From assembly GCA_034431475.1 (NCBI GenBank), contig DAOUDE010000062.1, forward strand, positions 21,192 through 85,191: a DNA stretch of 64,000 nt, written 5' to 3'. The notes under the pieces are model-generated. The model was given only the letters and a program-made list of their open reading frames with translations. It made no database searches and was not told the origin of the DNA. Below are positions 2,075-17,130 of the stretch, one piece after another; position 1 is the stretch's first letter, and the number at the start of each line of letters is the position of its first letter. The DNA comes from Thermomicrobiales bacterium. GTDB lineage: Bacteria > Chloroflexota > Chloroflexia > Thermomicrobiales > UBA6265. The translations under genes and the position numbers were made by a program.

Positions 2075-2187
2075 CCGGGTAACCGACGACTCCCTTCACT
2101 CGTTGCAATCCAGAGAACGCCCGTGTCTCGCCGTGGCATTCGTGCCGCGGCTATGCTTTGCCGTGGCCCCCAATAAGGAGCAAGAGA

Positions 2188-3999
2188 TTGAAGTTCGATT
2201 CCAAACTGGCACACGGCCTGGCCCCGGACGAGCACGCGGATCTGGACCGGCTCTGGCACGCCCTCAGCACAACATCCGTGAAGCCGTCTCGCCGCGATTT
2301 CCTGCGCTGGTCGGCCATTGCCGCTGGCGCGGTTGTCACGGCGCGCGAGGGCATCGTCACCGCCGCGCCGCGTCCCGTCCTGGCGCAGGATGCCCCAATC
2401 GTCGAGGGCGCGGAGATCACCGTGCCGTTCGATGCCTTCGGACAGGCGATCAACCTGGATCCGCACCGCTCCAGCGACTACGGCGGGTTCTGGGTGATGT
2501 ACCCGAACGTCTGGAACGGCTTCCTGCGCTACGACGAAAATGGGCGCATTGCCCTTGACCTCGCCGAGAAGATCTCGCGCTCGGCCGATGGCCTGCGCTA
2601 CACCTGCACCATACGTGAAGGCGCAGCCTACGCCAGCGGCAATCCGGTGCTGGCCGAGCACTTCATTGCCTCCTGGCAGCGCGCGCTCGACCCCGCCAAC
2701 CTGTCGCCCATGGTGGCCTTCATGGAACCGCTCAAGGGCTTTGCTGCCTGGATTGGCGGGGACACCAGCGCGCAACTCGGCTTCAGTGCAACTGACGACC
2801 GCACGGTCGTCGTGGAACTGGAGCAGCCTGTTACCTTTTTCCCGTCCTTCTTTGCCTCGTTCGTCTGGTCGGTCGTGGAGCCGCAGGCCATTGCGGATTT
2901 CGGAGAGACCAATTTCGTCCTGAACAGTGCTGGCGCCGGCCCCTGGCAGTTCACGGCGTACCAGCAGGACACCCAGTTTGTCATGGAGCCAAACCCGAAC
3001 TACTTCGGGGAACCGTCTCCGTCGATTGTCAAGATCACCTGGCCGGTCGTGAACGGCCCTGACGCAGCCACGTCCAGCCTCGATCTCTACGTGAACGAGG
3101 ACGCCGCCTCGGCCGATGTCCCGCTGTCGCTGCTCTCCGATGTCTCGGCAGATGAAACACTCACGGCTGAACTGAAGCAGTTGAACACCTCGCAGGCCAC
3201 CATCCGCTCGCTGGCCATGGATTTTCGGCAGGCGCCCTTCAACGATGTGCGCGTGCGGCGCGCCTTCGGACTGGCGTTCGACCGGGACCGCTATTCCGAG
3301 ATTTACGGGGGCACCTGGACCCCGGCAACCGTCTTCACCCCACCCGTGGTCAACGAACTGAGCGGCTACGCGCCGCCAGATGGCTTCCCGTTCGATCCCG
3401 AGCAGGCGCAAGCGCTGCTGGAGGAGGCGGGTTTCCCCGGTGGCGAAGGTCTCCCGGAGATCATCTACTACCTGGCGTCCGGCGAGAGCGACGCCGAGGT
3501 CGAACGTGTGCAGCAGGTGTTGCAGATTTTCCAGGACAACCTGGGGGTTGCCATCACGCTCGACAACAGCCGCACGCAGGCGGAGATCAACGACCTCATT
3601 ACCGAAACGGGCGGTCTACAGTTCGCCATCATGTGGTGGCAGACCGTGACGGACACGCCCTTCCTGCTGAGCGATGTCTTCCGGCCGGATTCGCCCTACA
3701 TGCAGGGCGTTTTCAACTGGTCGCCTGACCTGGAGGCCCTGGGCGGTGACCCGGGCGCAGCCGCCCAGCAATTCGCGGACCTGGTAGCGCGCGCCGACGT
3801 CGAACTGGACCAGGACACGCGCAACGATCTCTACCGCCAGGCGGAAACGCTGGTGCTGGAGAACGCGGTCTACGTGCCGATTGGCAACTGGGTGCCCATG
3901 TTCCTCCAGAAGCCGTGGCTCAGCGGTACCCGCCAGGGCTCCTGGACAGGCCGCTTCCCCGCGCTCTTCGACCAGAACGTGGTCGTGCTCCAGCAGTAG
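2188..3999 (+). CDS. ABC transporter substrate-binding protein, family 5 (peptide/nickel type), Tat-exported
   Basis: Twin-arginine motif SRRDFLRWSAIAAGAVV. Size (~600 aa) and motifs (WNGFLRYDENGRI, MEPNPNYFGEP, AGFPGGEGLPEI) are typical of family-5 SBPs. The likely start is TTG 2188, 7 nt after AAGGAG; the ORF track opens at 2158. Confidence 0.85.
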   Translation: MKFDSKLAHGLAPDEHADLDRLWHALSTTSVKPSRRDFLRWSAIAAGAVVTAREGIVTAAPRPVLAQDAPIVEGAEITVPFDAFGQAINLDPHRSSDYGGFWVMYPNVWNGFLRYDENGRIALDLAEKISRSADGLRYTCTIREGAAYASGNPVLAEHFIASWQRALDPANLSPMVAFMEPLKGFAAWIGGDTSAQLGFSATDDRTVVVELEQPVTFFPSFFASFVWSVVEPQAIADFGETNFVLNSAGAGPWQFTAYQQDTQFVMEPNPNYFGEPSPSIVKITWPVVNGPDAATSSLDLYVNEDAASADVPLSLLSDVSADETLTAELKQLNTSQATIRSLAMDFRQAPFNDVRVRRAFGLAFDRDRYSEIYGGTWTPATVFTPPVVNELSGYAPPDGFPFDPEQAQALLEEAGFPGGEGLPEIIYYLASGESDAEVERVQQVLQIFQDNLGVAITLDNSRTQAEINDLITETGGLQFAIMWWQTVTDTPFLLSDVFRPDSPYMQGVFNWSPDLEALGGDPGAAAQQFADLVARADVELDQDTRNDLYRQAETLVLENAVYVPIGNWVPMFLQKPWLSGTRQGSWTGRFPALFDQNVVVLQQ

Positions 4000-4013
4000 C
4001 CCCGGGAACGAAC

Positions 4014-4050
4014 GAAAGCCCCGCTCCCGTGATCCGGGAGCGGGGCTTTC
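4014..4050. terminator. bidirectional hairpin between convergent genes
   Basis: GAAAGCCCCGCTCCCG-TGATC-CGGGAGCGGGGCTTTC is a 16-bp perfect stem with A/T-flanked ends. It lies between the SBP stop (3999) and the DUF72 stop (4065). Confidence 0.55.
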
Positions 4051-4064
4051 GCATGTTCCCCGTG

Positions 4065-4931
4065 TCAGGAAAAGAGCGACGCCTGCACCGGCGGCAAGTC
4101 CTCCGTGTGCGGGGCTTCGCCACGCAGCATCCCGATCAGCACCAGGGCATTGCGCGTGCCGGCGCCCTTCTCATTGTTGTTGAACATCACGTGGACCTGC
4201 TTCGCTGAGCCGGCAAGTTGTTCCACAATCTCGACAAACCCGACAAGCTCTTCCGTCGAATAGTCATAGTCGTAGCGGCCGCTGTGGCCCAGCCATCCCT
4301 TCGCGTTGCGGCCATGCAGGCGCAGGTAGGCAAGATCCTCGTTGGTCGTCGCAACCAGCGGTTGCACGGTGCCCCGGCTCAGTTGCGGCTCGTCGGCGAT
4401 GGCGTACGCCAGCCCGAGGTCGCTGAGCAGGGAAAGGGTTGCGGGCGCGCTCTCAGCATCCAGCCAGGTGCCGTTCCGGAACTCGACGGCTACCGGGATA
4501 CCGGCCATGTGCCTGGCCACCCGGCCGAGGAATTCCCTGTTCGCCTCGGTGTTGCCGAAGCTGGGCGGGAACTGGTAGAGCGCGCAGCCGAAGCGGTCGA
4601 CGGTGCGCAGCGGCTCCAGCGAGTCACGAAACAGCGCGAACGTCGTGTCTGGGGGTATCGCCTCGCCGTGCGTCAGGTCGCGGAACGCCTTGACGTCGAA
4701 CAGGAAGCCATCCGGGGTCAGCGAAATCCATTTCTCGTACGTACTGACCGGCACGGGCCGGTAGTACGAGGTGTTGACCTCCACGATGGGGAAGTGGCGC
4801 GCGTACCAGGGCAACTTGTCGTCCGCCCGGGTACGCGCGGGGTAAAAGCCTGGCAGGCTGTTCCAGGAACTGATGCCGACGCGAACCTCGGCATCCCCGA
4901 CCTGGACCGGCGCGACCAGGCGCTCGCTCAC
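4065..4931 (-). CDS. DUF72 (UPF0759, YecE-like) family protein
   Basis: VGISSWNSLPGFYP...LPWYARHFPIVEVNTSYYR...FLFDVKAFRDLTH matches the DUF72 pattern as I remember it. The GTG at 4931 overlaps the upstream TGA (GTGA), so I prefer it to the ATG at 4967. Confidence 0.8.
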   Translation of the reverse strand: MSERLVAPVQVGDAEVRVGISSWNSLPGFYPARTRADDKLPWYARHFPIVEVNTSYYRPVPVSTYEKWISLTPDGFLFDVKAFRDLTHGEAIPPDTTFALFRDSLEPLRTVDRFGCALYQFPPSFGNTEANREFLGRVARHMAGIPVAVEFRNGTWLDAESAPATLSLLSDLGLAYAIADEPQLSRGTVQPLVATTNEDLAYLRLHGRNAKGWLGHSGRYDYDYSTEELVGFVEIVEQLAGSAKQVHVMFNNNEKGAGTRNALVLIGMLRGEAPHTEDLPPVQASLFS

Positions 4932-7114
4932 GCCGGGGCCTTCACCGGGGGCAGCAGTGCCCGCCACGGCCCGCTCATTCCGGACTCGCTGACACCATAG
5001 AAGACGCGTGGATCGCCATCGCCCAGGTAGACGAGGTCATAGCGACGGTCGCCTGAGCGCTGCCGGTAGGAGCGCCACAGGCCGAAATCGCCCTGCCAGC
5101 GGACCGCGCCAGTGTCGAGTTCACCCTTTTCTCGTTGCTGGATCGCCGCGCGCCACATGCGGCGGTCCGTGTCTTTCGTCACGTTGTAGATGAGCTTGTG
5201 GTACCGCAGGTCACGCAGCGTGTAGTAGCGCACGCCGTCGCTCTCGAAGCTCTCCAGCACCTCGATCCCGGTTGTAGGCGCTACGGGATCGGGTGCCGCG
5301 TCCTCCTCGAAGAGGGCGAACTCCTCTGGCTCGGAGGCGTGCTCTGGCAGCGCCGCCGCTGTCGCGGCCTGTCCGGTAACCAGCGCCGCCAACTCCAATG
5401 CCTCATCACGCACCTCGCCAGCGCGCGGCTCACGGGCCTCGCGGGTCGTCCGAGGCTTCGTGGCCGGCGCGGTGGGCTGTGCTGGTGATTGCTGGCGGTG
5501 AGAACGGCCGTTGCGGGCCGGCGGGGCCACGGGCGCGAGATCGGCCTCGGGCGGCATGATCGACGGAGGGGCCGTACTGGCGACGGCCCGCGCCGGCGCG
5601 GTCGCGGTCACGGGAGCGGCACCAGCCGGCAGGGCAGGTTCCGGGCGTGGCCCGGCCAGATCGGCGCGCACCATGTGCACGATCTCGTCCCGGCTGGCGG
5701 CGGCTGTCTCGCTGCCGCGCCGGATCAGGATGCCGCCCGGCTCCAGCGCGTGCGGCTTCTGGTTCCCATCGGCCACCTCGATAATGATGATCTTCTTGCC
5801 GTCGGCGGTGTGTTCGCGCAGTGAGAGGTGCACGGGCGGCAGAATCTGGCTCGCCGCCTCCGACGTGAGCTCAGCGATCAGCGCGGCGGGATCAGCCACG
5901 CCGGCGATGGGCCGCTTCTCCGCCGCTGACAGCCCGATGTAGATCGTGCCGCCGCCGCTGTTGGCGAAGCCCACGATGTCCCGCAGGATCACGCCCTGGC
6001 CACGGCGGGCCGTGGCGGACTCATGGAACACCTGCGTGCTCGTATTCCCATCCAGGCGCGCGGCCTTGACCGGGTCGCTGGGTGGTGGCGTGAAGGGGCG
6101 AGTCCGCTCGAATTCGTTGCTGGCGAACAGGCCCTTCAGCGAGGCGAACGTCAGTTCCTGCAGCAGCACCTCCGTCGGCCGGTCACCAACGCCGAGGTTG
6201 GTTTCGCGCAGCGGATCCTGCTCCAGGCGGTGGCAATCTGATCCCTGGATGCAGTGCATACGGCGGGGGTACTCGGTCTTCGTGCCGTTGAAGAACCGGG
6301 CCGTCGAGCGGCGGTTTGTGGCCGGGAGGAGGTCAGTAACCTCCATGGCGTGCAGGTTCGGGTCCTGGGTGTAGGCGATCTTGGTCTGGCCCCCGAAGCG
6401 AAGGCCCTGCATGGCGATACCGTGCGTGGAGTTCACGTGCGCGCCGATCACGAGCGCACCGTTGTCCGCCAGTATCTCGTACGCCCGCAGGACATCCGTG
6501 GTCGCGCCGACCTCGCCGCTCCCGAAGCGATCTTCCGGCACGCCAAGCAGGAGCAGCAGATGCTCCATCAGGCGAATGCTGGTGCCCTCCGGGAAGATGG
6601 CCAGGATGTGGAAGCCAAATTGCGCCGTAAACTCGAAGCCGGGCAGAACCAGGATGCGGCTCAGGAGATCCCGGTATTCCGCCAGGCGCTCTGCCTCGGC
6701 GGGCTCCATGCGCCCCAGGTACTCCAGCAGCTCGAGGTCCTCGATTTCGCGCCACATATCGGCATACCCACGGACCGAGTTATGGTCCGTCAGGGCGATG
6801 CCGTGCAGTCCCCGCTCGTCGGCGCGGCGCAGAATATCCAGCACGCGGATATCTGGCTGCTGGTAATCCACGGAGGCCGGAGTGTGGACGTGGAGGTCGA
6901 TTCTGCGCCACTGCAGATCATTGGCATCGGTAGGTGTCGGCACGGGCGGGATAGCCGGCGAAGATGACCGGCCATTAGCTGCCGTGCCTTGCTTGGCAGG
7001 TTGTGGCGCATCTTCTGTGCGCCGTCGCGTGGGTGATATTGGCGTCTCCTTTCGGTAGGGCTGCGCCGAATGCAGCGGTATGAATAACGGCTTGCGCGAC
7101 CCAAACCTTATCAA
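4928..7114 (-). CDS. multidomain protein: N-terminal PHP phosphoesterase domain, central AlbA_2 (Schlafen-type) putative nucleic-acid-binding domain, Pro/Ala linker, unknown C-terminal domain
   Basis: IDLHVHTPASVDY...ALTDHNS...GAHVNSTHG are PHP-type metal-binding His/Asp motifs. ILRDIVGFANSGGGTIYIGL...IIIIEV resembles the AlbA_2 core. The start (TTG 7114) is uncertain and has no SD. Confidence 0.7.
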   Translation of the reverse strand: MIRFGSRKPLFIPLHSAQPYRKETPISPTRRRTEDAPQPAKQGTAANGRSSSPAIPPVPTPTDANDLQWRRIDLHVHTPASVDYQQPDIRVLDILRRADERGLHGIALTDHNSVRGYADMWREIEDLELLEYLGRMEPAEAERLAEYRDLLSRILVLPGFEFTAQFGFHILAIFPEGTSIRLMEHLLLLLGVPEDRFGSGEVGATTDVLRAYEILADNGALVIGAHVNSTHGIAMQGLRFGGQTKIAYTQDPNLHAMEVTDLLPATNRRSTARFFNGTKTEYPRRMHCIQGSDCHRLEQDPLRETNLGVGDRPTEVLLQELTFASLKGLFASNEFERTRPFTPPPSDPVKAARLDGNTSTQVFHESATARRGQGVILRDIVGFANSGGGTIYIGLSAAEKRPIAGVADPAALIAELTSEAASQILPPVHLSLREHTADGKKIIIIEVADGNQKPHALEPGGILIRRGSETAAASRDEIVHMVRADLAGPRPEPALPAGAAPVTATAPARAVASTAPPSIMPPEADLAPVAPPARNGRSHRQQSPAQPTAPATKPRTTREAREPRAGEVRDEALELAALVTGQAATAAALPEHASEPEEFALFEEDAAPDPVAPTTGIEVLESFESDGVRYYTLRDLRYHKLIYNVTKDTDRRMWRAAIQQREKGELDTGAVRWQGDFGLWRSYRQRSGDRRYDLVYLGDGDPRVFYGVSESGMSGPWRALLPPVKAPA

Positions 7115-10489: not shown

Positions 10490-11901
10490 GGCGCGTTGTT
10501 GCCAAAGGGCGATGGCCCGCGACTGACCGTGACCTGGATGGTCGTACCTGGCGGCACGCGCGCCCCCGGCGCGGGATTCTGCGAAATGATGCTGTTCATG
10601 GGGATGCTGTCCGACGGCTCCATGCCATCCATGGTAAAGCGCAGCCCCAGGGGGATGAGGCTGCTGGTCACCGCTCCGATCGGCTGGCCGCGCAGATCGG
10701 GCACCGTTACCTGCTGTACCTGGGTGACCGGCGCCATCGTCGGCTGCTCATTCGCCACGATTGGGGGCGGCTCCGGTGCGGAGGTCGCCGTCGGCTCGGG
10801 CGTGGGCGTGACGGTGGGCTCCGCAGTCGGCGATGGCGTTGGTGACGGCGCGGGCGTCAACGTCGGTTCGACCTCGATAGCCCCGGTGATAACTGGCTCG
10901 ATGGGTGTAATCACCGTCGGCGGTGGGGGCTCACCCGTTGGCAACAGTTCGCGGAAGCCGAACCAGAGCAGCGCCGCAAACGCGGCCAGCACCAACGTGA
11001 TGATGACGAAGGTCGGCGCAGCGCTGGAGGACTTCGCCACCGGCCAGGCGCCCGGGGTGAGCGGCCCACTCGCCGTGCGGTCCACCGGCCCGCTGCCGCT
11101 CAGGGCCTCCGCCAGGGCCGTCACCGTCGGCCAGCGTTTGGTGGGGTCCTTCTCCAGCGCGCGCAAAATGACGGCATCCGTGGCCGCCGAGAGCGAGGGC
11201 TGCAGGCTGGATGGCGGCGGCGGCGGATCGTGGAGTTGCTGCATGGCCACGGCCAGCGGCGAGGTACCCTGGAACGGGACCTCGCCGGTCAGCATCTCGA
11301 AGGCCACGATCCCCGCCGAGTAGATATCCGAGGCGGGTGTCGCCATCAGGCCGCTGGCCTGCTCCGGCGAGACATAGTTCGCCGTGCCCAGCCCGCCGGG
11401 GTCGGTGAGCGTGCTGTCGGCCAGCCCGCGTGCGATGCCGAAGTCCACCACGCGCGCCCGCCGGTGCTCATCCACCAGGATGTTGCCCGGCTTGATGTCG
11501 CGGTGGACATACCCCCGCTTGTGCGCGTAGTCAAGCGCGCCGCCCACCTGCCGCAGCAGTTCGCCGACATCGGCCGGGTGGAAGGGCGCTTCGGCGGCGA
11601 TGATCTCCTTCAGCGTCTGCCCGCGCACCAGTTCCATGACAATGTACGGCTGGCCCTTCTCCTCGCCGACGTCGAAGACATCGATGATGTTCGGGTGCGA
11701 GAGGGAAGCGGACGCCCGCGCCTCGCGCTGGAAGCGGGCGCGGAACGCCGAATCGCTTGCGAACTGCGGCCTCGGCGTCTTGATCGCCACGTCGCGCGCC
11801 AGCAGCAGATCGTGCCCCTGGTAGACGATCGCCATGCCGCCCTCGCCGATCTTGCGCTCGACGCGGTAGCGGCCATTGATGATCGACTTCGGGCGGATCA
11901 C
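10486..11901 (-). CDS. Ser/Thr protein kinase with TM segment and C-terminal PASTA domain (PknB-like)
   Basis: Hanks kinase motifs GEGGMAIVY, VAIK, HRDIKPGNIL, DFG and SPEQ. TM segment APTFVIITLVLAAFAALLWFGF. The PASTA-like C-terminus is VTVPDLRGQP...ISQNPAPGARVPPGTTIQVTVS. Confidence 0.9.
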   Translation of the reverse strand: MIRPKSIINGRYRVERKIGEGGMAIVYQGHDLLLARDVAIKTPRPQFASDSAFRARFQREARASASLSHPNIIDVFDVGEEKGQPYIVMELVRGQTLKEIIAAEAPFHPADVGELLRQVGGALDYAHKRGYVHRDIKPGNILVDEHRRARVVDFGIARGLADSTLTDPGGLGTANYVSPEQASGLMATPASDIYSAGIVAFEMLTGEVPFQGTSPLAVAMQQLHDPPPPPSSLQPSLSAATDAVILRALEKDPTKRWPTVTALAEALSGSGPVDRTASGPLTPGAWPVAKSSSAAPTFVIITLVLAAFAALLWFGFRELLPTGEPPPPTVITPIEPVITGAIEVEPTLTPAPSPTPSPTAEPTVTPTPEPTATSAPEPPPIVANEQPTMAPVTQVQQVTVPDLRGQPIGAVTSSLIPLGLRFTMDGMEPSDSIPMNSIISQNPAPGARVPPGTTIQVTVSRGPSPFGNNAP

Positions 11902-13049
11902 GGCTGGCCGGCCACAGCGCCCGGCCCACCGGCCACGCGGACAGGAACCGGCGTGGTCAGGAAAACCTCCGCCGTATCCCGCAGGTGTTCCTCCAGCCGC
12001 TGCCTGACGACTTGGGCCATGGCTGCATCCGCAAACAGCGCGTAGTGCGCAGGACCAGCTCCCGACAACGCGACGTGCGTCGCGCCCGCCGCTCGCATCG
12101 CCCCGGCCACCGCCGCCACATCCGGCCGCAGCGCGTACAGCGCGCGGCTGAACGCGTTGCCAAGCAGCCCCGGATCGAGCGGCTCACCCGCACGCAGTCG
12201 TTCGGCCTGCTGCTGCACCCGCGCGCCATCGCTGAAATCCCCCGGCTCCAGCGCGGCGAACAGGCTGGCGGTCTTGCGCGGCATCTGGACGCGCGGGGCG
12301 ACGATGAGGAAGTAGAGCCCTGGAGAACCCTCACCCCCGGCCCCTCTCCCTGTACGCAGGGAGAGGGGAGACGAAGGAGGCGTTGTGCTCTCAGCCTGGT
12401 TGCCTTGTCCCGGATCCGCAGCCCCCTCCGCCACCGCGAGCCCCTCGCCCTGCGCATCGGGAGAGGGGTTGGGGTGAGGGTCCGTCTCCCTTCTCCCGCG
12501 CATCAGGAGAGGAGCTGGGGGTGAGGGCTCTTCGGGAGAGGCTGACGCCAGCTCACCGGGAAGCGGAAGTCGTTGAAGCACCTCCCCCCGCCCCCTGCCC
12601 AACGCGCACCCGCCTCGCAGCAGGAACGGCACATCGCTGCCCAGTTCCAGCGCCATCTCCGCCAGCGTATCGTCCGTCACCGCCACCTGCCAGTGATCCC
12701 GGAGCGCAAGCAACGTCGCTGCGGCGTCGCTTGAGGCGCCACCCAGTCCCGCCGCGATCGGGATACGTTTCTCCAGCTTCAGCAGCACCCCATGGCCTGG
12801 CGCGACCTGCTGCATCGCCTCGGCCGCGCGCCAGACCAGGTTCTCCTGCGGCGGCACGTCGCTGCCGGAGCACTCGAGCCCAATGCGCGGGCCGGGCGTC
12901 GCGGCCACTGAGAGTTCGTCGCACAGGCTGACGGTGAGGAAGATGGTGGCGAGGTCGTGGTAACCGTCCGCGCGGCGGCCCAGCACCTCCAGCCCGAGGT
13001 TCAGCTTGGCCGGGGCGGAGACAGTGAACGCGAACGGCAGCTCGTCCAT
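11898..13049 (-). CDS. ispE: 4-diphosphocytidyl-2-C-methyl-D-erythritol kinase (IspE) carrying a ~79-aa in-frame insertion
   Basis: GHMP kinase motifs APAKLNLGLEVLGRRADGYHDL, KRIPIAAGLGGASSDAAATLLAL and GSDVPFLL. The start ATG 13049 is 8 nt after the rsmA stop. The ORF track extends to 13154, but that overlaps rsmA. Confidence 0.85.
   Translation of the reverse strand: MDELPFAFTVSAPAKLNLGLEVLGRRADGYHDLATIFLTVSLCDELSVAATPGPRIGLECSGSDVPPQENLVWRAAEAMQQVAPGHGVLLKLEKRIPIAAGLGGASSDAAATLLALRDHWQVAVTDDTLAEMALELGSDVPFLLRGGCALGRGRGEVLQRLPLPGELASASPEEPSPPAPLLMRGRRETDPHPNPSPDAQGEGLAVAEGAADPGQGNQAESTTPPSSPLSLRTGRGAGGEGSPGLYFLIVAPRVQMPRKTASLFAALEPGDFSDGARVQQQAERLRAGEPLDPGLLGNAFSRALYALRPDVAAVAGAMRAAGATHVALSGAGPAHYALFADAAMAQVVRQRLEEHLRDTAEVFLTTPVPVRVAGGPGAVAGQP
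12328..12527. repeat. three copies of a ~40-bp palindromic (REP/MITE-like) element inside the ispE reading frame
   Basis: Unit 1 (12328-12368) is CCCTCACCCCCGG + hairpin CCCCTCTCCCTG-TACG-CAGGGAGAGGGG. Unit 2 (12441-12480) is CCCCTCGCCC-N8-GGGAGAGGGG + TTGGGGTGAGGG, in the opposite orientation. Unit 3 (12486-12527) is a degenerate copy. The same element occurs at 55635-55677. Confidence 0.75.
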
Positions 13050-13057
13050 CCTGGCGC

Positions 13058-13951
13058 CTAGGCGTCGCGCACGCTGCCGGGTGCGGCCTGCGTCAGCGTC
13101 ACCCACTCCGCGACCGAGAGCGTTTCCGCGCGGCGCATGGGATCGACTCCACACGCCTGCAGCCAGGCCGCGATCTCCGGCTTCGGCAGTTGCAGTACGT
13201 CCGCGATGGCGTTGGCGACCTGCTTGCGCTTCTGCCGGAAGCCGGCGTTGAGAATCTTGAAGAAGAGCGGCTGCTCCTCCCAGGGCAGGGGCATTGCGGG
13301 CCGCACATCGAGATGGATCACCGCCGATTCCACCTTGGGCGGCGGGATGAACACCGTCGGCGAGACGGTGAACGCGATCTTCGGTTCGGCGAAGAACTGC
13401 GTTGCCACGGAGAGGATCGTCATGTCCGGCGGTTGGGCCGTGATGCGCTCGGCCACTTCCTTCTGCAACATGACGGTCAAACGCCGTGGCTTGCGCGGCT
13501 GTTCCAGCAGGTGACGCAGGATGGCGGTGCCGGTGGAGTAGGGGAGGTTCGCCACCACGTCGAACGCGATGCCCGGCGCGAACAGGTCGTCGGCCGTCAG
13601 GTGCAGCGCGTTCCCCTGGATTAGCTCGAAGGTCGGCAGGTCCCCGAATGCCGTCTCCAGGTGCGCCGCCAGCCCTCGGTCGTACTCGACCGCGACGACG
13701 TGCCCCGCCTTCCTCAACAGCTCCGAGGTGAGGATGCCCAGCCCCGGCCCGACCTCCAGCACGCTGTCCCCCGGCCCGATGCCGGCCTGGCGCACCATGC
13801 GCTCGACAATGCCGCGCTCGAACAGGAAGTGCTGGCCCAGCCCCTTGTTCGGGCGGATGCCCAGCTCCTCCATCAGCCGGTTCCAGTCGCGGCGCGAGGT
13901 GGGGATGCGGCTGGCCGGGTTCTCCCGGTCAATACCCGGCGCGTCGATCAT
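13058..13951 (-). CDS. rsmA: 16S rRNA (adenine1518/1519-N6)-dimethyltransferase
   Basis: LGQHFLFERGIVERMV and VLEVGPGLGILTSELL (SAM motif I), plus NLPYSTGT. The ATG at 13951 overlaps the selD stop (ATGA). Confidence 0.9.
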   Translation of the reverse strand: MIDAPGIDRENPASRIPTSRRDWNRLMEELGIRPNKGLGQHFLFERGIVERMVRQAGIGPGDSVLEVGPGLGILTSELLRKAGHVVAVEYDRGLAAHLETAFGDLPTFELIQGNALHLTADDLFAPGIAFDVVANLPYSTGTAILRHLLEQPRKPRRLTVMLQKEVAERITAQPPDMTILSVATQFFAEPKIAFTVSPTVFIPPPKVESAVIHLDVRPAMPLPWEEQPLFFKILNAGFRQKRKQVANAIADVLQLPKPEIAAWLQACGVDPMRRAETLSVAEWVTLTQAAPGSVRDA

Positions 13952-15000: not shown

Positions 15001-15249
15001 GGGGTGAAACTTCCTGCTGCGGGGGCGAAATTGGCGGAACCGGCCGTGCGGCGATGATAGGGATGGGGGCGAGGGGGAGTCAAATTGAGACTGAGAGCAA
15101 AGGAAGTATCGTGAGTGCAATGATGACCTAACTTCATCCACCGAGTACAGACCTATTGGAACGTATCGCTTTTGCTACGCGTTCACTCGGCAAGCGCTGC
15201 GCCCGACTTCTAGCTGGTAATGATGCGCATTCAACCTGCAGCCGTTCAG

Positions 15250-15783
15250 CTATGCGATTCGGACCGGGACAGGCAAGCCTACTCTCATCACGAACCTTCC
15301 AAATGCCTGTGCCAAATGCTCGCGATACGGCGGAAGCAGGCGCATTCTCGGTGAAGTTGCTTTTGCATGCGTTTCAACCTGGAGGAGTGGTGTTGCAGCT
15401 ACCTGTCGAAAGCTTGCGACTCTACAGGGTGACTCGTACTCGGTAATCTCGCATGATGGAATCAAGTACAAGCTGACGACGGAACCCTGCTCTAACTGCT
15501 TCTTAGCACTCTCGCGTGCCTTGTTCGAGTCGGCGTTTGCAATGGCTAAGATGATCTCCTCAACATCGAAAAGCGGACAAACTAAAACGGAATCCAACTT
15601 CCCCTCCGTGAGATCACAGGTTTGAGACAAAACGATTATGTCGTAAACCTCTGTCGTTACATTAGGACTCGTTGCAACTGTCTCAGGGTCGAACGGGGGT
15701 TGCAGAACCAGCAAGGGGAAATCCAAGAGGATATCCCCTTGAGCGAGGGTCTCGTCCGATGTGACTTCGTACATCCCAAGCAC
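15250..15783 (-). CDS. hypothetical protein, island gene 3 (174-177 aa)
   Basis: Third ORF of the low-GC operon, with GTG 15783 or ATG 15774 as start. Motifs: GDILLDFPLLVL, YDIIVLSQTCDL, LLPPYREHLAQAFGRFVMRVGLP. No assignable family. Confidence 0.6.
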   Translation of the reverse strand: MLGMYEVTSDETLAQGDILLDFPLLVLQPPFDPETVATSPNVTTEVYDIIVLSQTCDLTEGKLDSVLVCPLFDVEEIILAIANADSNKARESAKKQLEQGSVVSLYLIPSCEITEYESPCRVASFRQVAATPLLQVETHAKATSPRMRLLPPYREHLAQAFGRFVMRVGLPVPVRIA

Positions 15784-15811
15784 CGCGACGGTAAGGCGAC
15801 CGAGTCGAGAC

Positions 15812-16309
15812 CTATTCCGAGAAGTCCTCAGAAGCTACTATCGGTAAACCTCGTTTCGACGCGAGCAGATTAGGCCTCACGGAGAAAGTTCGCTTTGGCG
15901 CAAGGATAACGTCAAGATTGACATCGTCGTATTGCGTACTTTCTTGTCCTTGTTCCGAAACTCGCTGCTCCAGAGAGGACCGCAACACTCGCTCAGCATG
16001 TAGCTGACGCTCTAGCACGGCAATCTTGGAAAGCAGCACTGCTCTCTCGAACTCGCCAGCGAAATACGCCTCGATGAGTGTCGACTCTGATCGCTTTGGT
16101 ACTGAATTGGTCGCCAGGCGCGATCTGTGACTATTTCCTCGAGTCTGTTTGGGCTTTCCCCAAAAATTTTCCACGACTTCGGGTCCCGACTCCTTCACTC
16201 CATGGTGCTTGGGATCAACCAGGAACAGTGCCTCTGGGTAACTTGGTTCGATAGTCGCATGGCCCCCAACGGTTTTGGCAGCGCCCCTCGCTGCAAATCG
16301 ACTTCTCAT
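15812..16309 (-). CDS. hypothetical protein, island gene 2 (165 aa, basic N-terminus, central coiled-coil-like segment)
   Basis: The ATG at 16309 is preceded by AGGAG with a 5-nt spacer, immediately after the stop (TAG 16320-16322) of gene 1. Heptad-like segment LLSKIAVLERQLHAERVLRSSLEQRVSEQ. The track ORF starts further upstream (16375), overlapping gene 1. Confidence 0.55.
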   Translation of the reverse strand: MRSRFAARGAAKTVGGHATIEPSYPEALFLVDPKHHGVKESGPEVVENFWGKPKQTRGNSHRSRLATNSVPKRSESTLIEAYFAGEFERAVLLSKIAVLERQLHAERVLRSSLEQRVSEQGQESTQYDDVNLDVILAPKRTFSVRPNLLASKRGLPIVASEDFSE

Positions 16310-16319
16310 GAAAGCTCCT

Positions 16320-16979
16320 CTAATCCTGAAGCACGATGCTTGCTGCAATGCCTTTTGCTCGTGCCAATGCCTCATGCGGCACCATCTCAGGATCCACGTT
16401 TGACAAATTGAATTTTACAAGCAACCAGAGATCTTCATTGTAGGGCCGATCCATGATGAAGTTGTAGGAAATTTCTTGGGTTCCATCATCGCCAAACTTG
16501 ACACCTCTAATGCCACGGATTTCATCCAGCGGAACTGAAAATTCCGACGAAGTGTTGAGAACAAATGGTAAGGGGAAAACAGTTCGAATACTCGGGCTGT
16601 CGGGAAAATCGAACTCAACCTCGCATCCTGCTACGCATTCTGGCTCCTCATCTCTAAGAAAAAAGTACAGCTCAGAATGATCCGCAGAGCTAGAAGTCGA
16701 GGGCCTCGACTCCGGTTGCACTTCATACCGGAGTCGCACCCAAATTTTTCCCGTTTCCTGATCATGCGTGGCAATCTCCATCCATGAATGGCTGACCCTA
16801 TTCTTATTGTAAACCAGCTCGATTACCCGGACCTCTTCTTCGGGTACTAGGCTTGAAAAGCGTTCCGAATTGGACGGCGACACATTGAACGACCAAACGA
16901 TGGACAGAGACGACATGTGGTTGCCGGCCAAGTCAAGTCTTGGCCATTCTTGCCGCTTTTCTTTCGCTATCTTCGCCAT
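16320..16979 (-). CDS. hypothetical protein, island gene 1 (219 aa, acidic, predicted beta-rich, no TM)
   Basis: Longest ORF in the low-GC islet and first in the minus-strand operon. No motif recognised. The start at 16979 has only a poorly spaced AGGA, so an internal start (e.g. MSSLSIVW) is possible. Confidence 0.6.
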   Translation of the reverse strand: MAKIAKEKRQEWPRLDLAGNHMSSLSIVWSFNVSPSNSERFSSLVPEEEVRVIELVYNKNRVSHSWMEIATHDQETGKIWVRLRYEVQPESRPSTSSSADHSELYFFLRDEEPECVAGCEVEFDFPDSPSIRTVFPLPFVLNTSSEFSVPLDEIRGIRGVKFGDDGTQEISYNFIMDRPYNEDLWLLVKFNLSNVDPEMVPHEALARAKGIAASIVLQD

Positions 16980-17130
16980 TCCTGATACCCGCGTATGTCT
17001 TGCGACCGGCCTCGTTGGTGGCTTGCTCTATCTATCATTGATTCTACGTCAGTTTGCCCGGCCCATACCTGCGACTGGCCGATTAGATTTCGGCGGAAGC
17101 AGGGTGCCAAATGAGTGAAGAAGCAACTTT

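Follow-up and report, generated by a model that had tools for sequence, protein, structure and literature searches.

A horizontally acquired three-gene cassette with a MazF-fold protein in a Thermomicrobiales genome, a candidate toxin–antitoxin or defence module

Gene layout and composition of the cassette

Three small genes lie side by side on the minus strand of the window, a term used here for the whole stretch of 64,000 nucleotides of Thermomicrobiales DNA that was analysed. An initial annotation had described them as three minus-strand ORFs of foreign composition and proposed a candidate toxin–antitoxin or defence system; reading of the ORFs confirmed all three. The junctions given in that annotation were also read exactly: the TAG stop codon of gene 1 (16320–16322) is followed by AGGAG, five nucleotides (CTTTC) and the ATG of gene 2 at 16309, and a gap of 28 nt separates the stop codon of gene 2 from the GTG of gene 3 at 15783. 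The features of the locus are the following.

16320–16979, minus strand: gene 1, an ORF of 219 aa encoding an acidic, beta-rich candidate accessory protein from a family without annotation, at the position that TIGR04255 usually holds
16315–16319, minus strand: AGGAG ribosome-binding site, 5 nt ahead of the gene 2 ATG, by direct reading
15812–16309, minus strand: gene 2, an ORF of 165 aa from the ATG at 16309, encoding a basic middle protein, putative antitoxin/adaptor
15950–16084, minus strand: helical heptad-like (coiled-coil) segment of gene 2, approximately residues 76–120, conserved in all three middle proteins of type I
15821–15925, minus strand: C-terminal motif of gene 2, residues 129–163, DVNLDVILAPKRTFSVRPNLLASKRGLPIVASEDF, common to the family-wide middle protein
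15250–15783, minus strand: gene 3, 177 aa if started at the GTG (15783) and 174 aa if started at the ATG (15774), encoding a predicted MazF/CcdB-fold protein, putative effector/toxin
15610–15627, minus strand: SQTCDL motif of gene 3 (88-sequence alignment; family consensus SQSCDL)
15316–15333, minus strand: PPYREH motif of gene 3 (88-sequence alignment; P152, Y153, R154 and E155 invariant)
17091–17113, no strand: 23-nt block ahead of gene 1, composed of a 13-nt and a 10-nt segment that exactly copy parts of the PPYREH-coding region of gene 3
15087–17130, no strand: low-GC, horizontally acquired island with the cassette (GC 0.39–0.58 inside versus 0.66–0.81 outside)

Genes 1–3 are real genes, and two unrelated contigs carry them in this order with 25–54% identity. 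The full triad is conserved at loci L001 and L002, and independent gene callers gave 219, 165 and 174 aa for genes 1, 2 and 3, respectively, in eight metagenome contigs. Eight extra copies of the cassette, in which polymorphism was sought for a selection test, were all 100% identical. The start of gene 1 is backed by the conserved N-terminus of its homologues (MA...EWPRLDL) and that of gene 2 by the N-terminus M-x-RS-x-FA of the middle genes at L001 and L002; since the N-termini of homologues are conserved at this shorter start, the longer ORF of gene 2 (187 aa, start at 16375) is unlikely. Scans for sigma-70 promoters and terminators and folding of the leader returned nothing above chance.

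The foreign composition reported initially was borne out, GC being 0.50–0.53 over 15001–17000 as against 0.68–0.71 in the flanks. The cassette thus forms an island of about 2 kb with 50–55% GC in a Thermomicrobiales genome of about 68% GC, and its three genes fill the island completely. The left edge was set where homology with the relative L106 begins, at ATTTGACTCCCCCTCGCCCCC, and the right edge, which is approximate, at the rise in GC at the start of a divergent DUF952 gene (17131). At L001 the cassette is likewise a 50–55% GC island in a genome of about 68% GC, at a different insertion site. Foreign GC content and different insertion sites indicate that the cassette was horizontally transferred, and favour its reading as a toxin–antitoxin or defence module.

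Another reading, in which the three genes would be a mobile element's own machinery for integration, replication or partition and not its cargo, is very improbable. It accords with the compositional island, with the rve integrase that adjoins the homologous cassette at L005, and with the 23-nt block, a composite repeat that links gene 3 to the region upstream of gene 1: its two parts correspond to 15328–15340 and 15309–15318, in permuted order, and a composite of this kind appeared in 5 of 2,000 Markov-random sequences. Yet ORF, Pfam, repeat and tRNA checks of the island found no integrase, transposase, terminal repeats or tRNA target, the roughly 2 kb are wholly taken by the three genes, and most homologous cassettes have no adjoining recombinase. 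An integrative element with att repeats or a tRNA target was rejected on the same grounds, the only tRNA lying 47 kb from the cassette.

The fold and conserved motifs of gene 3

Searches of Pfam, NCBIfam and PADLOC returned no match for any of the three genes, and thus no housekeeping or known-function family, in agreement with their first description as unassignable. That description needs softening because gene 3 can be assigned at the level of fold. Its AlphaFold2 (AF2) model (pLDDT 92.7, pTM 0.86) was compared with the PDB using Foldseek, and the top 50 matches were all MazF, PemK, Kid or CcdB (best E=3.4e-4, probability 1.0, target-normalised TM 0.63–0.69). The predicted structure therefore places gene 3 in the SH3-like barrel toxin fold of MazF/PemK/CcdB, and the exclusive return of these proteins among the top 50 matches favours a toxin–antitoxin or defence function.

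Gene 3 is the most conserved component of the cassette. Its family numbers at least 1,791 homologues that all lack a Pfam domain, and it occupies 579 or more loci in GTDB species-representative genomes from bacteria as well as archaea, Asgard archaea and Methanothrix among them. The sole match of the three proteins in the PHROGs collection was that of gene 3 to phrog_4575, whose function is unassigned (E=2.6e-6). Despite the common fold class, gene 3 differs from MazEF, Kis-Kid and CcdAB toxins in sequence: it matched neither PF02452 nor PF01845, and its family profile found nothing among PDB sequences. This lack of sequence or profile similarity to MazF/PemK/CcdB weakens the toxin–antitoxin or defence reading. 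Likewise, hhalign gave a probability of 0.3% between the gene 3 family and a MazF/Kid alignment with approximate MazF sequences, leaving a canonical MazF RNase unsupported.

The catalytic residues of MazF are an arginine (R25 in B. subtilis, R29 in E. coli) and a threonine or serine (T48/T52). When strand patterns were aligned, at motif level only (RPVLVIQ with YDIIVLSQ; AAIT with VCPLF), the Arg and Thr positions were occupied by Tyr/Asp and Pro/Trp-Phe, so that the Arg/Thr pattern is unrecognisable at that level, and QGD, SQxCDL and PPYREH are conserved in its place. Across 88 sequences, Q54 and C56 of the SQTCDL motif are invariant and D57 and L58 are conserved in at least 90%. PPYREH starts a conserved C-terminal helix that is absent from MazF according to the AF2 secondary structure; gene 3 also has inserted helices and is about 60 residues longer than these toxins. 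Two further traits speak against a toxin–antitoxin or defence function: gene 3 is acidic (pI 4.7), which is unusual for an RNA-binding toxin, and His106, nearly invariant in the family, is Tyr in the window's subfamily.

Type III toxins such as ToxN have a Kid/MazF-like fold and a size similar to that of gene 3. With about 175 aa and this class of fold, gene 3 would accordingly suit a ToxIN/AbiQ-like system neutralised by a repetitive RNA, but there is no tandem repeat array upstream, TRF finding only a 25-nt, two-copy repeat inside gene 3, no Rfam match was obtained, Pfam and PADLOC gave no ToxN/AbiQ match, and a conserved protein-coding gene holds the upstream position across the whole family. 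With no repeats and a conserved protein partner, this reading is effectively refuted and its probability negligible.

The middle gene and the exchange of first genes

The gene preceding gene 3 was surveyed in 80 genomes that span many phyla of bacteria and archaea. A small ORF immediately precedes the gene 3 homologue, with a median gap of 2 nt and an overlap in 22 of 57 pairs, and 53 of these ORFs form one family; a middle gene of the gene 2 type is always directly upstream of a gene 3 homologue. The family evolves fast and is conserved only in a C-terminal motif of about 35 residues, which gene 2 keeps (hhalign against the middle-protein family, E=1e-4, probability 56%; the gene 2 orthologue at L002 against the family HMM, 8e-4). 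Co-occurrence thus held at two levels, as the complete triad at L001 and L002 and as a gene 2–gene 3 core in dozens of phyla, and conservation of this pair across many phyla favours the toxin–antitoxin or defence reading.

Gene 2 had been proposed as an antitoxin-like partner, basic and with a heptad segment. Its pI of 9.3 and the helical, heptad-like stretch support this description, and its position and C-terminal motif, which are those of the protein preceding gene 3 homologues, fit the proposed role. Its N-terminal region is poorly conserved and gappy. The helix/heptad score is 0.51–0.67 for type I middle proteins and 0.40–0.45 for type II middle proteins, compared with a median of 0.23 for the middle proteins of cassettes headed by TIGR04255. 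A DNA-binding domain that serves autoregulation is usual in type II antitoxins. Searches of gene 2 and the family-wide middle proteins yielded no domain from Pfam or NCBIfam, and none of the AbrB/RHH type that binds DNA, which weakens the toxin–antitoxin or defence reading.

Among 61 loci with enough upstream sequence, the first gene encodes TIGR04255 in 29 and another protein in 15, and 13 have the middle gene and gene 3 alone, a two-gene form that was checked by eye at L013; the pair can therefore stand alone, like a toxin–antitoxin pair. In the window, L001 and L002, the first gene belongs to the gene 1 family. Gene 1 is the first gene of three-gene cassettes at L001, L002, L086, L087, L103 and L104, and its family stands first in type II cassettes too, where both the middle protein and the third gene differ. 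Gene 3 occurs with three or more kinds of first gene, and the gene 1 family with two or more kinds of third gene. Such swapping of the first gene, as in type II toxin–antitoxin systems and related modules, favours the toxin–antitoxin or defence reading. Gene 3 homologues are split into two ORFs at L014 and L065; this is read as decay of a kind common among dispensable conflict genes, and it too favours that reading.

The acidic and beta-rich character ascribed to gene 1 was upheld by a pI of 4.8 and by its AF2 model (pLDDT 91.9, pTM 0.88), with 11 strands and 4 helices. No significant fold match was found in the PDB (best E=0.016, TM about 0.2) or in BFVD, where one unnamed viral protein of 202 aa gave a TM of 0.42–0.45. 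Gene 1 has four close homologues, and profile searches yielded 233 cluster representatives; a metagenome scan for relatives returned one locus only. Neither the gene 1 family profile nor that of TIGR04255 matched PDB sequences.

TIGR04255, annotated as a 'sporadically distributed protein' and for which a literature search found no description, resembles gene 1 in its first position, similar size and lack of an assigned function. That gene 1 is a divergent TIGR04255 protein was, however, rejected at the sequence level: at a membership cut-off of at least 30 bits against the NCBIfam model, none of the 99 proteins of its family that were scored, itself included, matched, whereas the usual first-gene partners score 129–160 bits, and profile–profile comparison of the two families gave a probability of 0.3–1%. 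A weak N-terminal resemblance between them was observed (pRLdL versus PLvEA, E=0.052).

The distribution of first genes bears on whether the roles in the cassette might be reversed, gene 1 or TIGR04255 being the effector of a mobile accessory module and gene 3 a regulator, sensor or immunity protein. We regard this as quite unlikely. It would agree with the acidic nature of gene 3 and its apparent lack of a MazF catalytic signature, with the large, well-folded first proteins to which no activity is assigned, and with the occurrence of gene 1 without gene 3 at L003 and in type II cassettes. Two-gene forms, however, lack the first gene and retain the other two, conservation is highest in gene 3 while the first gene is swapped between unrelated families, and all known MazF/CcdB-fold proteins returned by Foldseek are toxins.

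Genomic setting, related systems and proposed function

The cassette occupies a slot upstream of selD, in the synteny selD-rsmA-ispE. Relatives with the same synteny and a selD at least 90% identical were compared. In these, the slot contains either Druantia DruA (PADLOC E=1e-107) or a cytosine methylase (3e-83) with PDC-M33A/C (9e-17, 9e-8), PDC-M33 being a candidate system in PADLOC. The slot is thus a variable defence hotspot in close relatives, and its content in these relatives favours the toxin–antitoxin or defence reading. Variable hotspots are rich sources of defence systems (PMC10121019, PMC10250203). The location in a defence island that the initial proposal called for holds at this slot but not for the wider family: in the 80 genomes, the nearest neighbours of gene 3 family cassettes are mostly housekeeping genes, only about 5–8 of 126 being defence-like, which weakens the reading. 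It is also weakened because no relatives were found in sequenced plasmid and phage databases and only 7 among 2.9 million contigs of IMG/VR, and because PADLOC has no model for any component; in PADLOC-DB v2, the proteins of TIGR04255-type cassettes matched no model either.

These observations bear on a further reading, of the cassette as a non-toxic accessory complex (e.g. a stress-response or nucleic-acid-handling factor), neither toxin–antitoxin nor defence, in which the MazF-like barrel would be a binding scaffold. The mostly housekeeping flanking genes, the absence from the plasmids and phages searched, the lack of a PADLOC model and the apparent absence of catalytic residues in common with MazF all suit it. 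Against it stand the sporadic occurrence in unrelated phyla, the foreign GC and the varied insertion sites, the modular shuffling of partners, the pseudogenisation of some copies, and the presence of DruA or of PDC-M33 with a methylase in the same slot of close relatives. On balance, we consider it unlikely.

The cassette was compared with known systems. Like type II toxin–antitoxin systems in general, it has adjacent, co-directional, coupled small genes with a sporadic and mobile distribution (median gap 2 nt; at least 579 loci). With MazEF, Kis-Kid and CcdAB in particular, gene 3 has in common, beyond its fold class, a small, rapidly evolving, tightly coupled gene immediately upstream and a sporadic, horizontally transferred distribution; unlike those systems, the upstream protein lacks an AbrB/RHH-type domain and a third, interchangeable gene usually heads the operon. 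Accessory, antitoxin and toxin follow one another in an order that resembles that of omega-epsilon-zeta. This system and the tripartite TAC and CmdTAC (PMC9098466, PMC11618068), which are three-gene toxin–antitoxin operons, also have three co-directional genes, with a third protein beside the toxin–antitoxin pair. However, no component of the cassette is homologous to theirs and, by Pfam and fold search, gene 1 is neither a SecB-like chaperone nor an omega-type repressor.

Combinatorial partner exchange is described for type II toxin–antitoxin and related defence modules in the NetFlax report (10.1101/2023.03.22.533649). As in its 'hyperpromiscuous' networks, partners in the cassettes are exchanged between unrelated families; in contrast to them, exchange here occurs within a three-part architecture with a bipartite middle protein, and literature searches on these networks yielded families other than those of the cassette. 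A literature search for MazF-like tripartite systems found no prior description.

Taken together, fold, triad and hotspot context support the initial toxin–antitoxin or defence proposal, and the cassette is probably a new kind of such module. The explanation that we favour, with moderate confidence, is a self-contained conflict module of three genes, acquired horizontally and of the toxin–antitoxin or abortive-defence kind, with a MazF-fold effector, an antitoxin/adaptor and a swappable accessory protein. In the mechanism that we infer, including toxicity, its neutralisation by gene 2, the binding parts, a trigger and an anti-phage effect, gene 3 would be the effector, with its MazF/CcdB-type fold, conserved C-terminal helix (PPYREH...MRVGLP) and SQxCDL motif. 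It would probably arrest growth via RNA or another essential target, with an active site differing from that of canonical MazF. Gene 2 would be its cognate neutraliser and adaptor, whose C-terminal residues (about 35) are proposed to bind and mask gene 3 and whose helical coiled-coil part may couple to gene 1. Gene 1 would be an interchangeable accessory, sensor or regulator, a role that a TIGR04255 protein would hold in most cassettes.

More tentatively, and with less than even chances, the cassette could exemplify a tripartite immune or conflict system that is widespread in bacteria and archaea but has so far escaped description. The C-terminal peptide of the middle protein would restrain a MazF-fold effector with a non-MazF active site, its N-terminal part would plug into interchangeable sensors (TIGR04255, the gene 1 family and others), and the same family of sensors could also act through another effector. 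In that case, TIGR04255 would receive its first functional assignment and the MazF fold a new biochemical activity.

If the toxin–antitoxin or defence reading is true, some 1,800 or more proteins now listed as hypothetical would form a new branch of the MazF/CcdB toxin superfamily, spanning many phyla, including Asgard archaea and methanogens, with an active site and an antitoxin peculiar to it. The orphan TIGR04255 family would gain a functional context, and the known defence systems would be joined by a compact three-gene candidate from lineages (Chloroflexota, Planctomycetota, archaea) that are poorly sampled by present catalogues, in which Proteobacteria and Firmicutes predominate. The middle protein, apparently an adaptor in two parts, would offer a simple model for the recombination of sensors and effectors.

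Locus and chromosomal slot

The three genes lie on the minus strand of the window as follows:

16320-16979, minus strand: gene 1, ORF of 219 aa
15812-16309, minus strand: gene 2, ORF of 165 aa
15250-15783, minus strand: gene 3, ORF of 177 aa from a GTG, or 174 aa from the ATG at 15774

Direct reading of the sequence confirmed the compact layout described in the initial annotation, with TAG, AGGAG, 5 nt and ATG at the junction of genes 1 and 2, and a gap of 28 nt between genes 2 and 3. The foreign composition noted there is also real: the three genes fill an island of ~2 kb with 50–55% GC, the rest of the window having 64–71%. The cassette is flanked by selD-rsmA-ispE on one side, and by a divergent DUF952 gene and an MMPL transporter on the other. 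In the source organism, a Thermomicrobiales MAG, gene 1 is labelled hypothetical protein by NCBI. The exact cassette (100% identical) was also found, in unchanged context, in eight metagenome contigs, for which independent gene calls gave 219/165/174 aa. NCBI also records a 187-aa version of gene 2 (protein P0273) that starts at an ATG at 16375 (window 15812-16375) and overlaps gene 1; from the sequence, the start at 16309 is favoured because the N-terminus is conserved in orthologues and an AGGAG site is present. SelD and gene 1 carry consecutive NCBI accessions (MFN8675403.1 and MFN8675404.1), which suggests that the assembly may lack annotations for genes 2 and 3.

Two other assemblies with a SelD at least 90% identical, both retaining selD-rsmA-ispE, have other low-GC cargo in the slot immediately before selD, which corresponds to the window from ~15087 onwards:

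Contig L105, 202-2480: DruA gene (Pfam PF14236; PADLOC DruA, E=1e-107) and a 380-aa protein
Contig L106, 1-4487: cytosine methylase (DruM/MTase_II, 3e-83), PADLOC candidate PDC-M33-like proteins (A, 9e-17; C, 9e-8) and a 317-aa protein

From ~15087, in the selD promoter region and exactly at a sigma-70-like site (15083-15054), the window is homologous to L106; the far border lies beyond the end of both contigs. Such variable slots are known to be rich in defence systems (PMC10121019, PMC10250203), and in this Thermomicrobiales lineage the slot upstream of selD is a defence hotspot. Location in defence islands, which the initial annotation proposed as a check, thus holds for this slot. Across the family the evidence is weaker: most of the genes closest to 80 cassettes are housekeeping genes, and among the rest are four PIN domains, a few restriction genes of type IIG/III, and proteins resembling DpdE and GajB.

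Two exact repeats, of 13 nt (CGGCGGAAGCAGG) and 10 nt (GTGCCAAATG), are shared by the region upstream of gene 1, where they are contiguous (17091-17113), and gene 3 (15309-15340), where they lie 9 nt apart in the opposite order, in the part that codes for the conserved RLLPPYREHLAQA motif. Of 2,000 random sequences, 5 produced such a composite; the one here may be a scar of recombination, an operator or a product of chance. The IspE (GHMP kinase) ORF (11898-13154, minus strand) contains a P/S/G/E-rich low-complexity insert of ~90 residues (roughly 12150-12460, minus strand; e.g. 'PSPDAQGEGLAVAEG...PLSLRTGRGAGGEGS'), which may be a GC-rich repeat element tolerated in frame. IspE has ~383-390 aa in the window's lineage; typical IspE is shorter.

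Distribution and predicted fold of gene 3

None of the three proteins, which the initial annotation could not assign, matched a Pfam, NCBIfam or PADLOC family in profile searches; the sole PHROGs match was weak, between gene 3 and a family whose function is unknown. Prevalence differs greatly between the genes. Gene 1 has four close relatives, and 233 cluster representatives in a profile search of 1.84 billion proteins; a database search with gene 2 returned only gene 2 itself; gene 3 has at least 1,791 homologous proteins of 170-190 aa, all lacking a Pfam domain and, where any source name is given, all 'hypothetical'. A genome scan, with each species represented once, located gene 3 relatives at no fewer than 579 loci. 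Among the many groups that carry them are Chloroflexota, Planctomycetota, Nitrospirota, Methanothrix and Asgard archaea, the cultured Promethearchaeum syntrophicum being one of these last. Searches of PLSDB plasmids and INPHARED phages found no relative; in IMG/VR, seven contigs encode one, preceded in 4/7 by TIGR04255, an NCBIfam family that is the usual first-gene partner. Two homologues (contigs L014, 4034-4591, and L065, 4421-4924) are split into adjacent ORFs, probably through frameshifts that made them pseudogenes, or perhaps through assembly errors.

An AlphaFold model of gene 3, built with an 88-sequence alignment, reached pLDDT 92.7 and pTM 0.86. Its top 50 Foldseek matches in the PDB were all MazF, PemK/Kid, MoxT or CcdB toxins (best E=3.4e-4, probability 1.0; target-normalised TM 0.63-0.69). 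The family profile had no match among PDB sequences, and hhalign against a small MazF/Kid alignment of hand-entered reference sequences stayed at noise level; judged from the model, the relationship is structural only. Invariant in the family are Q15-G16-(D17), Q54-x-C56-(D57), P70, R146, P152-Y153-R154-E155 and M166-R167-x-G169-x-P171. When strands are lined up by pattern, other residues appear to occupy the places of the catalytic Arg and Thr of MazF (R25/T48 in B. subtilis MazF, PDB 4MDX). Gene 3 is acidic (pI 4.7) and ~60 residues longer than MazF, and its model has both inserted helices and an additional helix at the C-terminus. Because the likeness is structural only and the invariant residues are its own, the predicted protein is classed by its MazF/CcdB fold and is not placed in the MazF family, and its molecular activity is expected to differ from that of MazF. 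A main risk in assigning it an effector role is that gene 3 is non-toxic.

Middle protein and interchangeable first gene

At 80 genome loci, an ORF of ~80-160 aa precedes the gene 3 homologue on the same strand; an HMM made from these ORFs recognised 53. A median of 2 nt separates these ORFs from gene 3, with overlap in 22 of 57 pairs. Conservation of these middle proteins is confined to the last ~35 residues (e.g. DFVVK-MPPKKKYKI-HVVVRNVKKGKPRVVEP). Gene 2 ends in DVNLDVI-LAPKRTFSV-RPNLLASKRGLPIVASEDF, occupies the identical position relative to gene 3 and aligned with the family (hhalign E=1e-4, probability 56%); its orthologues in L001 and L002, two contigs with homologous cassettes, fit the C-terminal motif better, that of L002 matching the family HMM at 8e-4. 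This modest but consistent evidence suggests that gene 2 is a divergent member. By analogy with classic antitoxins, the middle protein would be antitoxin-like, because it is short, evolves fast apart from its conserved C-terminal peptide, and is translationally coupled to a well-conserved toxin-fold partner; that the roles are reversed is the other main risk.

The co-occurrence proposed as a check was observed: on both L001 and L002 each of the three genes has a homologue and the gene order is unchanged (identities: gene 1, 37/34%; gene 2, 25%; gene 3, 54%), the middle gene of L001 being missing from the source's own gene calls. In L001 the cassette is a 50-55% GC island within a ~68% GC contig, adjoining transketolase genes. 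Since the low-GC islands of the window and L001 have different neighbours, the cassette has been transferred horizontally as one unit into different sites.

First gene at the 61 loci with enough upstream sequence
~255-aa TIGR04255 protein: 29/61
Other protein: 15/61
Two-gene form (middle gene and gene 3 alone): 13/61
No adjacent upstream ORF called: 4/61

The first gene is interchangeable. TIGR04255 partners matched the NCBIfam model with E=1e-37 to 1e-47, one two-gene locus (L013) was confirmed by eye, and the gene 1 family takes the first slot in the window, L001 and L002 only. The L013 cassette, from a Methanotrichaceae MAG, is flanked by a SIR2-like-looking protein of 508 aa (2082-3608) and a PIN-like protein of 131 aa (5897-6292), both judged by eye from translations. 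In L100-L102 (low-GC proviral IMG/VR contigs, ~4000-5590), proteins of ~140 and ~166-174 aa that match neither TIGR04255, the gene 1 family nor the common middle family precede a gene 3 relative; this is a further cassette variant, at contig ends. Identity of gene 1 with TIGR04255 was ruled out at sequence level, with 0/99 gene 1 family members matching the model and a profile-profile probability ≤1%. The structural model of gene 1 is confident (pLDDT 91.9) and beta-rich, and had no significant match among PDB and BFVD folds.

Gene 1 relatives also head a second cassette type:

L086, 713-1900
L087, 887-1964
L103, 1001-2160
L104, 938-2217

Here the gene 1 relative comes first, ahead of a middle protein of 240-270 aa, which combines a helical segment with a conserved C-terminal 'NWD(D/S)xG' domain, and a third protein of 116-170 aa, which is unrelated to gene 3 and bears the motif 'FLYRRV...AAF' at its N-terminus. 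Neither protein matched Pfam in L086 and L087, and the third proteins of L086 and L104 had no match among PDB sequences; the third protein may represent another unannotated effector family. By a crude helix/heptad score, middle proteins of the seven gene 1-headed cassettes, of both types, gave 0.40-0.67, and TIGR04255-headed ones reached at most 0.43 (median 0.23). In this small sample the score separates the two, so the helical part may track gene 1 and the C-terminal part the third gene, which suggests a bipartite adaptor, one end fitting the accessory and the other the effector.

Reading of the cassette

As far as computation reaches, sequence and models support the defence-module reading of the initial annotation: the cassette is a supported candidate for a horizontally acquired, tripartite, toxin-antitoxin-like defence system. 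Somewhat better than even, in our estimate, is the assignment of gene 3 as putative effector, gene 2 as neutraliser or adaptor and gene 1 as an accessory that can be swapped. The kind of system is known; neither its families nor its architecture turned up in the libraries searched or in the searchable literature.
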